Positions 40,113-48,144 of a stretch of DNA of 64,000 nt are shown here, in pieces. The translations under genes were made by a program, and so were the position numbers. Numbering within the stretch: the first letter of the stretch is position 1; each line of letters starts with the position of its first letter. Under the pieces are notes generated by a model. It was not told the DNA's origin. It made no database searches and saw only the letters and a program-made list of their open reading frames with translations. The DNA is from Candidatus Berkelbacteria bacterium (GTDB taxonomy: Bacteria; Patescibacteriota; UBA1384; 2-12-FULL-50-11): NCBI GenBank assembly GCA_016432625.1, contig CP066697.1:586561-650560 (forward strand), in the 5' to 3' direction.

Positions 40113-40141
40113 TTGCTTTTCCTCGAAGCCAGCCTTATAAT
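40113..40141 (+). promoter_or_regulatory. Sigma70-type promoter of the trpS operon
   Basis: TTGCTT-17 nt-TATAAT. Confidence 0.75.
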
Positions 40142-40229
40142 GCGCTCAACAACGAGACATCTCGCTGTTGATGAGGTTCTTTAACAAAAAGGATATCATT
40201 GCAGTAGAAGTCTCGTGGAGAAGTAACCT

Positions 40230-41246
40230 ATGGAAAAAGACAGTCACATCATCCTTACCGGCGACCGACCCACTGGCCCTTTGCATTTGGGTCACTACGT
40301 CGGCTCGCTACGTGAGCGAGTGAAGCTTCAAACGGAGCACAAACAGCTCATCATCATCGCCGACGCGCAGGCACTCACAGATAACGCCACCAACCCAGAG
40401 AAGGTTCGCAAGAACATCCTCGAAGTGGCCCTGGATTACCTTGCCGTAGGCATCGACCCCAAGCAAACGACGATCTTCATCCAATCGCTCGTACCGGAGA
40501 TCGCCGAACTGACGATGTATTATCTCAACCTAGTGACGGTTGCACGCCTTCAACGCAACCCAACCGTCAAAGAAGAGATCAAGCAGCGAGGGTTCGGCTC
40601 AAGTATCCCGGCCGGCTTCCTGGCATACCCAGTGAGCCAAGCAGCGGACATCACCGCTTTCAAAGCGGACTTGGTGCCCGTAGGCGAAGATCAGCTGCCG
40701 ATGATCGAGCAAACTAACGAGATCGTGCGCAGCTTCAATCGTATCTACCGACACAAGGTGCTTGTCGAGGCTAAGGGACTTCTTTCGAAGGTCTCTCGTC
40801 TCCCCGGCACAGACGGGAAGGGCAAGATGTCCAAGTCATTGGGCAACGTCATTTCGCTTTCAGACAGCGCCGATGAGGTAAGTCAGAAAGTGAAAACGAT
40901 GTACACCGACCCGAAACACCTCCGTGTGGAGGATCCTGGAACGGTTGAAGGCAACCCGGTATTCGCGTACCTGGAAGCCTTTGATCCCGACGAGAAAGGT
41001 CTCGAAGCAATGAAAGACCACTACCGCAAAGGGGGGCTTGGGGATACTGTCGTAAAGCGCAGACTCCAAGAAGTCCTTTTGGCGGAACTGGATCCGATTC
41101 GCGCTCGGCGCGAAGAATTCGCCAAAGACCCTGACGCAGTGATGCGCATTCTCCAAGATGGAACCGCAGCAGCTCGCGAAATTGCTGCAAAAACCTTGGA
41201 AGATGTTCGCAGAGCAATGCGCATCGACTATTTCTCCAACGACTAA
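40230..41246 (+). CDS. trpS: Tryptophan--tRNA ligase (bacterial, TrpRS-II/streptococcal-like)
   Basis: [46 protein letters not shown]. Confidence 0.97.
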
Positions 41247-41257
41247 AGGAGGTCGTC

Positions 41258-42340
41258 ATGTCTGAAATCGTTCGCGTCGCAACAAAAGCGATGAGGATGA
41301 TGCTCGGCGAGCAAGACGACCCTGAACTCATCCTTCTCTCCTTCCCCGGAAGTTCTGGTGCGAGAGTGTCGCTTTTTAGACACGCTCGCACCAATTCTCT
41401 CTATGCAGTGAAGTGCGTGGCGCAGTCACGGGTTTCACTAATGGACGAGATCGGAAGAAGAAACGCACTAACGCCTTACCTGCCGGATCACCTCCCGCAG
41501 GTATTATGGTGCCAAGTGTTGGACGGCTTCGAGGTCATGATCTCCGAGTGTAAGGGGATACATTCCCTCCATCACCTCATTATCAACTCCAACGTGCCTC
41601 ACAGTCGTTTACTAGGAGTCTGGAAGGACTTTATAGAGGCGCTACTGCGAATGTGGCAAGGTTCCGAGCACCAGTTCAATGAAGCTCTGTGCCCGCGCTT
41701 CTTTCCCGCCCGGCTGGGTAGGATTGAGCAGGGTATTCGTAATGCGACCGTTGGCAAGACCAAGCTCTCCGAGTGTTGGGATATGCCAGTGGTCGTCAAC
41801 GGTAGCGAATACCAGTCTATCGCAAAATCGTTCGAGGCGATTGCCCAGGTGGGCAAGCCAAAAATGGGCGTAGTGTGCCACGGCGATCCTCAGCCCAGCA
41901 ATATCGTTGTCGGGACGAGGTACTCATGGTACTGCGTAGACTGGGAGTGGGCAGGCCCTCATCAGGATTGGAGAATGATGTTGGCCAATCTCTACGGGTG
42001 GTGGTCTACCCGTTGCAGCGTCTTGTCTACCGATGCCGTCTTGCGAGTGTCTCGAAATCGTCTTGAAATCGAACACAGCTCGTACGTGCCGACCCACTTA
42101 CAACCGTACCAAGACATCGCGCGCTCCGTTGCTTCGACGATGTCAGCTGGATTTCCGAGTGAGGAGACGACAAATGACGTTAACCGGTTTCTCGCCGCGC
42201 TCTACTTTGGGGAGATTAGATTTCTTCACATGTGGGGACGCGAGGCTTTCGCTGAAACAATGCTGGCTCAGGCCATCACTACGATTAGCGGATCATATCG
42301 GGGCGCTAACGCACAGTCGTTCAGATTCCCTCAACAATAA
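41258..42340 (+). CDS. Aminoglycoside/choline-kinase-like phosphotransferase
   Basis: GSSGARV P-loop, YAVK, HGDPQPSNI (Brenner motif), DWE; AAGGAGG RBS. Confidence 0.8.
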   Translation: MSEIVRVATKAMRMMLGEQDDPELILLSFPGSSGARVSLFRHARTNSLYAVKCVAQSRVSLMDEIGRRNALTPYLPDHLPQVLWCQVLDGFEVMISECKGIHSLHHLIINSNVPHSRLLGVWKDFIEALLRMWQGSEHQFNEALCPRFFPARLGRIEQGIRNATVGKTKLSECWDMPVVVNGSEYQSIAKSFEAIAQVGKPKMGVVCHGDPQPSNIVVGTRYSWYCVDWEWAGPHQDWRMMLANLYGWWSTRCSVLSTDAVLRVSRNRLEIEHSSYVPTHLQPYQDIARSVASTMSAGFPSEETTNDVNRFLAALYFGEIRFLHMWGREAFAETMLAQAITTISGSYRGANAQSFRFPQQ

Positions 42341-42351
42341 GGAGTAGGCAT

Positions 42352-46322: not shown

Positions 46323-46535
46323 ATGCCACTTTCACCGACCCAGTCGGTCTCATTCTGGTGCGAAGAGTGCCAATGGAAGACTGGTGGTGTCATCATCGAC
46401 GGGAAACCCGTCTGTCCGAAGTGCCGAGGCAAGCTCCTTGGCATTAACTTTTGTCCTAAGTGCAAAATAGGCACGGCGCTTGAAGCCTGCCCGCTCTGCC
46501 ACGACCCTATCAAGTCGGACAGCGATCCCGGATAG
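46323..46535 (+). CDS. Small double zinc-ribbon protein (4 CxxC)
   Basis: CEEC, CPKC, CPKC, CPLC in 70 aa; GAGGA RBS. The longer ORF-track version overlaps the tRNA. Confidence 0.7.
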   Translation: MPLSPTQSVSFWCEECQWKTGGVIIDGKPVCPKCRGKLLGINFCPKCKIGTALEACPLCHDPIKSDSDPG

Positions 46536-46544
46536 GAGGGGATC

Positions 46545-47825
46545 ATGAAAGACCCATACAGTTGGCCTGGACAGGCCACGGAACTAGTCATGCGTGATGC
46601 CGAGAGCGCCCTTGGCGAATGTAGTTGTTTGCCCTGGGAGTGGGCCACATTTGGCTACCCCGGCAGAGCACCACTGCCAGTCGCGCTCGAAGCACTCACC
46701 CTCGCTCAAAAGATCAATCCCAACAATATCGGTGACCACTCGCTTCCCTTCCGACAGGCGGGGCATAAGCAAACCGAGCACGGGTTTGACGGTACCCAAC
46801 GATTGGAGCGTGAAGCAATTGCCAGCCTCGTCCAGCTTGCCGGTGGCGACCCAGCCACAACTGGCGGTTACCTCTGCGAGGGTGGCACCTCTGCCAACCT
46901 TGCCGGTCTCTGGATGGGACGCAATTACTTGCGAGCTCAACCTGGGGCAAAGCGAACGGTGATTATCACGACTCGTCTTGCCCACTACAGCATCCTGAAG
47001 GCAGCCGATATCCTCGGCTTCAACCCGAACGACATCATCTACGCGCCGTGTAACCGCTCCGGCGGTATATCGGTTTGCGACATCACTGAACTGGCGTATC
47101 GACTCCAGTCGGAAAGGATCACCGGCGTACTGTTCGTCTGTACGGCTGGGAGCACGATGATGGGCAGCGTCGACGATGTCAGCCAAGTTAACGAACTTCG
47201 CGCTGGCTTGAGGCTAGCCGGTATCTCGACGTACATCCATGTCGATGCGGCCTTCGGCGGGTTCGTGCTGCCGTTTCTGGCCAAGCCGGTACGCTTCGGC
47301 TTCGACCAGGGAGCTGACTCTGTCGTCATTGACCCCCACAAAATGGGGGGCGTACCGTTCGGTTGCGGAGCAATCCTCTACCGCGAGCAGTACGCCGGAC
47401 CAGTGGCGGTTAAGGCACCGTACTTGAACAGCGAACAGGACTGGACAATCAACGGCAGCCGCAGCGGCGCTAACGCTGTTGCTCTTTGGGCAGTGCTTGA
47501 AGAGCAGGGCTTTGATCAACTTGCCAAGTGCGTGCAGCAATGCATCGCTTTGCGCGACTACGCCAGAGAGCTATTGGACCAGGTCGACCACTTCCAAGTG
47601 CACGTCGGCCAAACCAACCAGCTTTGCCTGGAGATCACCGACCTTTCGGTGGTGGAGAGACTTGCTAGTCGAGTCTGTAACCACCCTTACTACATGCATG
47701 TCGCCCCGTTCCCCAGACGGTTCGACGACCCCAACTGCCAGGAAGGGCGCGCGCTCAAGATGATCTTGATGCCGCACCACACCAAGCAGATGGTGGACGA
47801 GTTCGTTAGACAGGTGAAACTATGA
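46545..47825 (+). CDS. Group II PLP-dependent amino acid decarboxylase (MfnA/tyrosine-aspartate decarboxylase-like)
   Basis: GGTSANL, AHYS, AGST..GSVD, HVDAAFGG, DPHK (PLP Lys), GSRSG. Confidence 0.88.
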   Translation: MKDPYSWPGQATELVMRDAESALGECSCLPWEWATFGYPGRAPLPVALEALTLAQKINPNNIGDHSLPFRQAGHKQTEHGFDGTQRLEREAIASLVQLAGGDPATTGGYLCEGGTSANLAGLWMGRNYLRAQPGAKRTVIITTRLAHYSILKAADILGFNPNDIIYAPCNRSGGISVCDITELAYRLQSERITGVLFVCTAGSTMMGSVDDVSQVNELRAGLRLAGISTYIHVDAAFGGFVLPFLAKPVRFGFDQGADSVVIDPHKMGGVPFGCGAILYREQYAGPVAVKAPYLNSEQDWTINGSRSGANAVALWAVLEEQGFDQLAKCVQQCIALRDYARELLDQVDHFQVHVGQTNQLCLEITDLSVVERLASRVCNHPYYMHVAPFPRRFDDPNCQEGRALKMILMPHHTKQMVDEFVRQVKL

Positions 47826-48076
47826 CAGCGGAACAGAGCGCAGCTCTACCTCAGCTGACATGGACCCCGGAAATGATAGAGACACTTCGATCTGAAGCTT
47901 GGGAGGCCGTGAGCAATCGCGAGCACTCAGCCATGAAGATCGAGCTGCTTCTCGCCCAAATCGAGGAGGTCCTCGAGCGCAAGCTCGTCAGCGGTAATGA
48001 GGTGTTGGTTTGGCACGAACGCCGAATCGAACTCCAAGAGCTGCACCAAATCGCCACTAGCCGCTGGGAAAACTAA
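47822..48076 (+). CDS. Hypothetical helical protein
   Basis: 84-aa ORF with ATGA overlap onto the decarboxylase stop. Confidence 0.55.
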   Translation: MTAEQSAALPQLTWTPEMIETLRSEAWEAVSNREHSAMKIELLLAQIEEVLERKLVSGNEVLVWHERRIELQELHQIATSRWEN

Positions 48077-48112
48077 CCCAGTCGCCCCGACCCTCACCGC
48101 ACCGCGGTGGCC

Positions 48113-48144
48113 AGGCGGAAAGCTTCAAAACTTTCCGCCTTTTT
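48113..48144 (+). terminator. Intrinsic terminator
   Basis: aggcggaaag/ctttccgcct plus tttt. Confidence 0.75.

Follow-up and report, generated by a model that had tools for sequence, protein, structure and literature searches.

A tryptophan-linked gene island in a Candidatus Berkelbacteria genome and its putative non-translational tryptophanyl-tRNA synthetase paralog

Why should a bacterium with a genome of 768,650 bp carry three genes of the tryptophanyl-tRNA synthetase (TrpRS) fold and two tRNA-Trp genes? These are the totals of a genome-wide scan of Candidatus Berkelbacteria bacterium (genome G000; a single contig, 95% complete), the source of the 64,000-nt window of contig CP066697.1 analysed here; in a run search the window is best represented in groundwater metagenomes. 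Two of the synthetase-fold genes and one of the tRNA genes lie in an 8.1-kb island (40113-48144) that is a mosaic of three modules, A, B and C, each with its own promoter and its own terminator. An initial annotation had described here a TrpRS, a TrpRS paralog, a leader peptide with a WW pair, tRNA-Trp(CCA) and five enzymes, in three promoter-to-terminator units plus one opposite-strand gene; profile, tRNA and open reading frame (ORF) scans find every component in its place, and promoter-like and terminator-like sites were found for each unit. It missed a 70-aa Zn-ribbon ORF and an 84-aa ORF in the tRNA unit. The search that it suggested for a further trpS or trnW returned a housekeeping TrpRS (C1:691633-692613) and a housekeeping tRNA-Trp (C1:482317-482391) elsewhere in the genome, and the island copies are therefore extras. 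The likeliest answer to our question is that the island makes, senses or detoxifies a tryptophan (Trp)-derived compound or a TrpRS inhibitor, the substrates being conjectural. In particular, we favour, with confidence that falls just short of even, a pairing of Trp-diverting chemistry with safeguards for Trp-tRNA charging, in which module A would make a Trp-nucleotide conjugate.

Module A consists of the following features.

40113-40141, + strand: promoter-like site TTGCTT-17-TATAAT, read from the sequence
40230-41246, + strand: extra canonical TrpRS of TrpRS II type (TIGR00233, 252.8 bits against a cut-off of 176.75)
41258-42340, + strand: phosphotransferase of APH/choline-kinase fold (alignment, weak profile matches)
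42352-43197, + strand: Pol-beta-superfamily nucleotidyltransferase (NTase; motifs, structure model, fold match to Tam41)
43187-44221, + strand: archaeal/eukaryal-type TrpRS paralog (alignment, structure model)
44240-44275, + strand: terminator-like hairpin with T7, read from the sequence

The paralog, whose structure model has a predicted local distance difference test score (pLDDT) of 95, matches eukaryal and archaeal TrpRSs (Foldseek template modelling score, TM, of 0.77 to human TrpRS, E 2e-20), and its fold match is to class Ic with an anticodon-binding domain. The protein collection holds 67 paralog and 49 kinase homologs, often on contigs of equal length, and 71 NTase homologs are present in the 50% library. 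We aligned 42 of the 67 paralogs, plus ten actinobacterial rows. All 42 keep HxGH (H82, G84 and H85), R251-M252, Q215, E110, the GG of SGGR, four cysteines and K331, and their KMSKS equivalent reads RMSxK, with Arg in place of the first Lys throughout; the actinobacterial rows keep HxGH, D212, Q215, R251, GG, the four cysteines and K331, and have lost E110 in 10/10. The cysteines (C298, C320, C327 and C330, in 42/42 and 10/10) are spaced C-x21-C-x6-C-x2-C, compared with C-x22-C-x6-C-x2-C for the [4Fe-4S] TrpRS motif in the available part of PMC5370408. At the site of human Q284 the paralogs have T, N, M, V, S, I or L and never Q, at that of D312 H, N, K or Q and never D, at that of A310 Asp in 42/42, and at that of R318 always Glu, while the Asp that binds indole in A. 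pernix is replaced by A, S or T and the human E199 and Q313 sites are kept. We take human Q284, A310 and D312 and the A. pernix indole Asp to have Trp-pocket or AIDQ roles. This pattern of conservation indicates that the ATP site and the anticodon domain are under selection and that the amino-acid pocket has changed. In the ESM Atlas the nearest clusters, as a lead only, are archaeal TrpRSs and one 56-member Actinomycetota cluster. The tail of an SGNH fusion in G023 was considered as a degenerate TrpRS and rejected (probability 0.2%).

The canonical TrpRS of the module retains intact GDRPTG, HLGH and KMSKS motifs, and its best match in the PDB is Deinococcus TrpRS II (E 2e-134); cassette TrpRSs mostly fall in the TrpRS II clade, those of loci L006/L030/L038 lying in a different clade of a tree with long branches, in which the deep joins are unsure. 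Invariant residues of the kinase in its alignment are K52, E64, D210, N215 and D228; at profile level it weakly resembles spectinomycin phosphotransferase (E 0.0096) and choline kinases, and PF01636 is found on actinobacterial members. The NTase (model pLDDT 96) has GS and SDxD motifs that are at least 90% conserved, and its closest solved fold is Tam41 (7ecd; Z 13.2, root-mean-square deviation 4.2, 210 residues aligned, 14% identity). Two Tam41 entries match over the whole chain with Z of 13.2 and 10.9, followed by 10.7 over 116 residues, and the top Foldseek match has E 6.5e-6 and TM 0.45; Hailong HalB and MNT antitoxins are also among the fold matches. Its nearest ESM Atlas neighbours, again only a lead, are unnamed clusters of NTases from viruses and archaea, with which it shares few features. 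These models predict a Tam41-like fold, Tam41 being an enzyme of the cytidine triphosphate (CTP):phosphomonoester type.

Homologs of both enzymes also occur outside the cassette. Orphan kinases (L054-L058, in G262, G263, G205 and G151) lie beside IMPase/FBPase, HAD and PFK genes and a regulator-sugar nucleotidyltransferase fusion, and a full-length homolog of the cassette NTase heads a gene row in L158 (G731:C2, 6040-9614) whose other members are, by the look of their sequences, presumably NUDIX, histidine phosphatase, CYTH-like and a further NTase. We rejected the idea that the Trp-rich kinase is a built-in Trp sensor: cassette kinases have 9-13 Trp and five orphan kinases 7-11, so that Trp content is a family trait.

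How widely is this gene set held together? We fetched 38 cassette-A loci (6 from genomes and 32 from metagenomes, several being duplicates of one lineage), carried by Patescibacteria and Micromonosporaceae. The kinase-NTase-paralog trio is complete in 31, and the remaining seven stop, at locus or contig ends, before the missing gene. Of the 32 loci that have upstream DNA, 30 show a canonical TrpRS next to the kinase, these TrpRSs coming from three lineages, and each of the four cassette genomes checked (G042-G045) has, like G000, a second TrpRS above the cut-off. From one pair of loci to the next, the identities of kinase, NTase and paralog rise and fall together (Spearman 0.88-0.94 over 16 non-independent loci). 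The NTase and paralog genes overlap and stay neighbours even where the order is altered, as in L039 (NTase, paralog-aminotransferase fusion, TrpRS II, kinase, LLM oxidoreductase). Extended cassettes (L008/L031/L032 and L029) also contain a HisC-like aminotransferase together with a Gfo/Idh/MocA oxidoreductase; a HAD phosphatase and an S51 peptidase occur in these and also in L003, L017 and L019, and L029 adds a TylF methyltransferase. In Micromonosporaceae the HisC-like aminotransferase is fused to the paralog, in a cluster whose 14 members carry names from Melissospora, Micromonospora, Verrucosispora and Salinispora, and kinase homologs extend to Actinoplanes, Streptomyces and Streptomonospora.

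Elsewhere the cassette is rare. The paralog query detects no paralog in 40 relatives, its single weak match (G023) being a different TrpRS, and a first genome scan with a single paralog as query gave no match. Kinase matches occur in 10 of 400 phylum genomes, the five strongest at non-cassette loci and the others weak, which leaves the cassette-type kinase in 0/400; a full-length NTase occurs in 2 of 351 genomes of another class, one in a cassette and one outside. No paralog relatives were found in viral contigs and no actinobacterial kinase in plasmids. The 5' leader of module A in G000 forms a long hairpin that covers the ribosome site (fold z -3.8) and is not conserved in relatives; a Trp-sensing leader before the cassette trpS was rejected, since despite this strong hairpin no Trp leader is common to 21 upstream regions.

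We tentatively propose the following mechanism for module A. The substrate of the kinase would be a small alcohol, probably a sugar or a cyclitol, and the Tam41-like enzyme would convert the phosphate so made into a nucleoside diphosphate (NDP) derivative. Recognition of tRNA-Trp would fall to the paralog, which would then move the Trp of Trp-tRNA to the NDP unit, as SbzA does with Ile-tRNA. The resulting Trp-nucleotide conjugate would inhibit or drain the ordinary TrpRS, and the Trp-free TrpRS II would supply both Trp-tRNA and immunity. We infer all four steps of module A, as we do each of the substrates and products and any link between A and B or C. A wider statement of the idea is possible, though we would not call it probable: module A may be a new machine whose paralog no longer loads Trp, uses an Fe-S anticodon domain to go on reading tRNA-Trp and, together with the kinase and the Tam41-like enzyme, builds a Trp-nucleotide antibiotic or tags tRNA-Trp. 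This machine would be common to Micromonosporaceae and ultra-small Patescibacteria, and in the latter it would have joined a previously unreported regulon that senses Trp-tRNA and comprises ligase, deacylase, either decarboxylase or dioxygenase, and spare tRNA or TrpRS.

The conservation pattern of the paralog could also be explained if module A acted on tRNA itself, with the paralog as the subunit that targets or senses tRNA-Trp and with NTase and kinase modifying the tRNA end or making a signal when uncharged tRNA-Trp builds up, in a toxin-antitoxin, abortive or GCN2/RelA-like logic. The amino-acid pocket is indeed most degenerate in the actinobacterial rows, in which E110 is lost throughout and the ATP and anticodon-domain motifs are kept; the overlapping NTase and paralog genes, adjacent even in the reordered L039, and the HalB and MNT antitoxins among the NTase fold matches point the same way. 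Against it stand the small-molecule enzymes that partner the long clusters, the nucleotide- and sugar-phosphate enzymes that surround non-cassette NTase and kinase homologs, and the failure to find paralog relatives in viral contigs, and we consider it improbable.

Does the remainder of the island fit a Trp-nucleotide conjugate made beside charging safeguards? Module B, which contains the extra tRNA gene, consists of the following.

46135-46163, + strand: promoter-like site TTGACC-17-TACAAT, from a sequence scan
46219-46291, + strand: tRNA-Trp(CCA), from tRNA calls
46323-46535, + strand: 70-aa Cys-rich Zn-ribbon ORF (DZR, E 0.0014, below the cut-off)
46545-47825, + strand: group II pyridoxal phosphate (PLP) decarboxylase (PF00282, E 1.4e-28)
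47822-48076, + strand: 84-aa ORF, without a Pfam or NCBIfam match in profile scans
48113-48144, + strand: terminator-like hairpin, from a sequence scan

The decarboxylase has the DPHK lysine and belongs to the MfnA/HDC clade, with MfnA as its best PDB match (E 3e-30); the closest solved decarboxylases act on Tyr/Asp, His and Ser. Six strong homologs were examined, including two weaker ones (G366 and G272). The other four, from four families (G002, G023, G047 and G151), have a tRNA-Trp at most 1.4 kb away and a TrpRS no farther than 6 kb, the latter directly upstream in G002, at 1.3 kb in G023 and at 2-6 kb in G047 and G151; the nearest TrpRS in G000 is 5.3 kb upstream, outside unit B. In each of the four the module tRNA-Trp is an extra copy and a further TrpRS is present (partial in G002). 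In the phylum sample a decarboxylase beside tRNA-Trp occurs in 2 of 400 genomes. The unit of G002, a member of the same genus, runs tRNA-Trp, Zn-ribbon, TrpRS, decarboxylase, small ORF, with no cassette A on that contig, and unit B of G000 equals this unit minus the TrpRS, its Zn-ribbon (59%, same position) and 84-aa protein (62%) both having G002 homologs. Regulators appear in two of the others, a TrpR-family repressor in G047 and a UGG T-box in G151. We suggest that module B would decarboxylate Trp or a Trp analogue, with the spare tRNA-Trp, and in relatives a TrpRS too, as safeguard, in the manner of tyrS-tdc.

The island tRNA-Trp has G1-U72 and G73 and the housekeeping copy A1-U72 and G73. 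The module tRNA-Trp genes of L060, L073, L059, L085 and L086 all start with G1 (5/5), most other copies in the same genomes having A1-U72, and the G023 module tRNA-Trp has A73; partly orthogonal pairs are possible. The loci of these units hold further genes. L086 (G047:C2, 5280-11528) contains the spare TrpRS, a chorismate-mutase/methyltransferase fusion, the TrpR-family repressor, tRNA-Trp, decarboxylase, a 331-aa Pfam-less protein and an Asp/Glu racemase. In L085 (G151:C3, 3057-6576) the UGG T-box precedes an 841-aa protein with PPDK_N and PEP-utiliser domains, in a layout that presumably resembles rifamycin phosphotransferase, and a low-molecular-weight phosphatase, and the T-box genes are flanked by the spare TrpRS and by tRNA-Trp and decarboxylase. 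A third, atypical tRNA-Trp lies in a Gln-Pro-Trp-Asp tRNA array of G002 (L102, G002:C2, 29-395), perhaps owing to misbinning or brought in by a mobile element, and a decarboxylase homolog of 30% identity lies on a viral contig (L089, 271-1563) in a tRNA-free neighbourhood.

Between A and B lie module C and a deacylase gene of opposite orientation.

44303-44331, + strand: module C promoter-like site TTGACA-17-TACTAT, from a sequence scan
44339-44392, + strand: leader peptide MVKQLSTTTWWGGLTLI, from a short-ORF scan
44392-44397, + strand: antiterminator arm, from the predicted fold
44430-44450, + strand: attenuator terminator, from the predicted fold
44470-45225, + strand: short GCS2/YbdK-like carboxylate-amine ligase (PF04107, E 1.8e-8)
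45224-45253, strand unassigned: hairpin where the ligase and deacylase genes converge, read from the sequence
45252-46112, - strand: AstE/AspA (aspartoacylase-family) deacylase (PF24827, E 1e-20)

WW-containing peptides are few in this genome (4 among 1111 short intergenic ATG ORFs). The leader ATG lies 7 nt 3' of the promoter-like site, and the transcript may be leaderless. In silico, the predicted probability of the terminator is 1.00 in the free leader, 0.01 with a ribosome stalled at WW and 0.99 with a ribosome at the stop; the stalled-state switch requires that the first 40-52 nt be masked, masking of at least 56 nt giving at least 0.96, and 9 of 300 shuffled leaders reach the stalled value. 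The module C leader is thus predicted to behave as a ribosome-mediated Trp attenuator. The trpL attenuator has tandem Trp codons, alternative 1:2, 2:3 and 3:4 pairings and a U-run terminator, and module C is alike, but stands before a carboxylate-amine ligase in a Trp auxotroph rather than before trp biosynthesis, and homologous genes use T-boxes. Module C would, in our proposal, be turned on by scarce Trp-tRNA and would glutamylate an amine, for example the product of module B.

The ligase has the ExE, HxH and ExR motifs and homologs in 8 of 400 phylum genomes, one of which (G300), a weak match, was left out of the leader analysis. Upstream of the ligase there are UGG-specifier T-boxes in G089 (96.8 bits) and G196 (67.2 bits, below the gathering score), a WWW leader whose fold switches in the same way in G072, a partial T-box in G066 and an aromatic leader with a single Trp in G154 and G326; examination of the upstream region in G407 gave nothing clear. 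Rfam finds no T-box within the window itself. AstE follows the ligase in four of the eight homolog loci, and in two the ligase is the contig end. G196 has, in a single locus, T-box, ligase, AstE, Trp dioxygenase, tRNA-Trp and an opposite-strand TrpRS, with another TrpRS elsewhere, so that a second family also combines parts of types B and C. In that locus (L109, G196:C50, 426-5634) the Trp 2,3-dioxygenase is placed behind a Trp T-box of starvation type, a paradox if Trp is what the enzyme acts on, and an unrelated nucleotidyltransferase precedes the spare TrpRS. L105 (G326:C3, 4629-8809) has a class I glutamine amidotransferase upstream, followed by an aromatic-rich leader, two tandem GCS2-like ligases and a small phosphatase-like gene.

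The deacylase has the AstE motifs HGNE, NR, H and E. It is 56% identical to a same-site copy in G009 and 47% to those in G001/G002, compared with 23-27% to the AstE of Trp-controlled ligase operons; its GC content at third codon positions is 0.49, which is host-like, against 0.61-0.68; and relatives carry AstE at the site without tRNA-Trp. AstE is therefore the weakest member of the island, being opposed to the ligase, host-like in composition and nearer to same-site family copies.

Starvation switches of this kind raise the question of whether the island is a plain Trp-starvation kit, in which deacylase and ligase free or store Trp, the spare TrpRS and tRNA raise charging, and the paralog charges at low Trp. 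Similar operons in the candidate phyla radiation (CPR) were so interpreted by Mukai in 2017, in the part of the paper available (PMC5370408), and neither TrpA nor TrpB2 has a match in the 768,650-bp genome, the remaining trp genes being outside that search. Such a kit is very doubtful: decarboxylase and dioxygenase would destroy Trp, the paralog is without the Gln and Asp that are kept in TrpRS-A (AVQLAQ and GIDQ in G482), and kinase and NTase would be without a role.

Are the modules one unit at all? The initial annotation had argued that separate Trp signals are unlikely to cluster by chance, and this is borne out: each unit is Trp-linked on its own in other genomes, B and C types meet in G196, and the block recurs elsewhere at about 92% identity. 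In run X5, from another study, 40105-48271 is covered by five overlapping or abutting contig pieces that differ from the island in 596 of 8095 letters; these contigs continue into unlike sequence at both block ends, and depth over the island flanks is zero at 80% likeness. One bridging contig joins paralog to leader and one ligase to small ORF, no contig spanning the whole block. Runs X6 and X7, which look like a single data set filed twice, agree with X5. The simplest reading is that the composite 8.1-kb block moves as one unit. The same annotation's single island-wide system is not supported as one pathway: independent occurrence of the units, which it had named as refuting, is seen for module A, with GCS2, AstE, decarboxylase, Zn-ribbon and small ORF (blastp E 1e-4) and tRNA-Trp each in 0/38 cassette-A loci, many with short flanks. 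A single pathway across the whole 8 kb, as established fact, is thus rejected.

It follows that a shared hot spot, in which Trp-related modules work separately and hitchhike in one variable site, has to be weighed, and it would be compatible with any mechanism for A. The site, between a FeeM-like gene and an acyltransferase, holds other genes in G001, G003, G009 and G011; A lacks B and C in 38/38 loci and B lacks A in G002; and each module has its separate promoter and terminator. The rarity of the modules in the phylum sample (2/400, 8/400 and 0/400) makes chance placement side by side unlikely, unit B lacks its G002-type TrpRS here, as if that of A had replaced it, and the block is intact in the X5 copy. 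On balance we regard the hot spot as somewhat unlikely. The shared block of X5 ends within the 3' end of the acyltransferase gene (window 48143-48271), which suggests that it may have entered by recombination there. Immediately left of the island, on the minus strand (35814-39929), lie a FeeM-like N-acyl amino acid synthase, a ThiF-family protein, a HisKA_7TM/GAF histidine kinase and a response regulator; in G001 and G002 the gene between FeeM and the kinase differs from that in G000. With PADLOC 2.0.0, which covers listed systems only, 0/9 island proteins match defence proteins, save generic matches of the PLP decarboxylase to SspA/DndA.

Several observations weigh against a Trp-nucleotide conjugate made beside charging safeguards. 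Module A was never found adjoining B or C, so that a joint function would be conjecture, and L034/L035 have the trio without an adjacent TrpRS. All 19 cassette TrpRSs are devoid of Trp residues, compared with 1 of 16 other TrpRSs, but these rows represent three lineages only and Deinococcus TrpRS II is likewise Trp-free (residues 5-328), so that the lack of Trp is in part a property of the TrpRS II family. With Tam41 the NTase shares a fold at 14% identity, which is no proof of function, and the kinase and NTase profiles weakly match aminoglycoside-inactivating enzymes as well. No tRNA-Trp was found within 14-15 kb of the decarboxylase in G366 and G272. The HisC-like aminotransferase partner has no tblastn match in G000 and there is no exporter or transporter among the island ORFs; the short cassette is therefore without an evident full synthesis route. 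Finally, a Trp-destroying dioxygenase under starvation-type control in G196 fits analogue removal better than a Trp-consuming pathway.

A rival reading is a resistance island against Trp analogues or TrpRS inhibitors from outside, in which kinase and NTase would inactivate the compound, the paralog would bind or sense it, decarboxylase, dioxygenase and ligase would destroy analogues, and the spare TrpRS and tRNA would sustain charging. APH and ANT are the usual inactivation folds, Trp-tRNA-sensing switches govern the ligase, the dioxygenase of G196 and the PPDK_N/PEP-utiliser phosphotransferase of G151, and a 769-kb auxotroph with neither aminotransferase nor exporter fits resistance better than synthesis; second copies of aminoacyl-tRNA synthetases (aaRSs) are documented as resistance genes in the accessible parts of PMC9437257 and PMC7916415. 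Resistance leaves unexplained why the paralog has kept its anticodon-domain motifs alongside a lost Trp pocket, and why an aminotransferase fusion and oxidoreductase, phosphatase and methyltransferase partners should exist, and the best NTase fold is Tam41 rather than ANT(4') (Z 13.2 against 10.7). We accord it a limited chance only.

The reading that we prefer, Trp diverted into a conjugate under protected charging, has partial precedents. According to the portion available of a 2022 review of aaRS duplications (PMC9437257), SbzA, an IleRS homolog of the SB-203207 pathway, transfers the amino acid of an aminoacyl-tRNA to a metabolite, and MshC, CysRS-like, ligates an amino acid to an amino-sugar inositol in mycothiol. 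Module A shares with these the presence of an aaRS-like protein within a small-molecule gene cluster; it differs in its archaeal-type TrpRS scaffold, four-Cys anticodon domain, APH-fold kinase and Tam41-like NTase. Table 1 of that review, in the same portion, lists no function for a TrpRS paralog. The clusters for indolmycin, albomycin, mupirocin and agrocin 84/AgnB2 likewise have an extra, divergent canonical aaRS beside biosynthetic-type enzymes and the housekeeping copy elsewhere, but none is described with the enzyme set of the island in the parts available (PMC9437257, PMC7916415), and here the carriers are mostly tiny-genome Patescibacteria and the G000 cassette is transporter-free. For module B the likeness is to tyrS-tdcA-tyrP and hdcA-hisS of lactic acid bacteria, in which, in the available text, a group II decarboxylase lies beside a cognate-type aaRS with a T-box nearby (PMC3315439); the island has Trp in place of Tyr or His, a tRNA gene inside the unit, and in G000 a unit B free of TrpRS. 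There is no antiporter of the tyrS-tdc type in the G000 island, and the EamA of G023 has no tblastn match in G000.

Also comparable are the CPR and DPANN operons of TrpRS-A or TrpRS-A-like proteins with ORF1, in which TrpRS-A needs ORF1 and tRNA-Trp(A73); as far as the available part of the report goes (PMC5370408), they share an extra archaeal-type TrpRS beside a bacterial TrpRS in CPR, Trp-free proteins and, in some, a four-Cys motif. TrpRS-A of G482 and G473, with which the paralog shares 24-25% identity, keeps an intact Trp pocket, and the tRNA-Trp of the island has G73 rather than A73, with cassette-A loci free of tRNA-Trp (38/38). ORF1 of G482 matches only G482/G473 among the fetched loci and nothing in G000 or cassette loci, and the NTase was rejected as an ORF1 (profile probability 0.3%). 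In L161 (G482:C31, 3555-9336) tRNA-Trp(A73), ORF1 and TrpRS-A come first, then a TrpB2-like gene and a fused bacterial TrpRS of 660 aa, with ORF1 and both TrpRSs Trp-free; L162 (G473) is the same minus TrpB2. Compared with the CDP-diacylglycerol synthase Tam41 (7ecd, 6ig2), the best whole-chain fold, the NTase has 14% identity and a deviation of 4.2, and CTP acting on a phosphomonoester would fit the order of kinase, then NTase. Our literature search found no description of cassette A or of a T-box- or attenuator-controlled ligase in CPR, most subscription papers lying beyond its reach.

A TrpRS paralog with a job outside translation would be absent from the list of aaRS paralog functions in the review, as far as its available portion goes (PMC9437257). 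The cassette also occurs in cultivable actinomycetes (Melissospora, Micromonospora and Salinispora, as the paralog-aminotransferase fusion), so its product can be sought directly. The attenuator and the UGG T-boxes identify a signal for enzymes so far annotated by family only, and the Trp-controlled set of ligase, deacylase, decarboxylase and dioxygenase provides a testable handle on Trp auxotrophs that face shortage or analogues. If a Trp-nucleotide inhibitor of TrpRS is indeed the product, it would provide a new scaffold for antibiotics whose target is already validated, and ultra-small, host-dependent bacteria would be among those that make or resist such an inhibitor.

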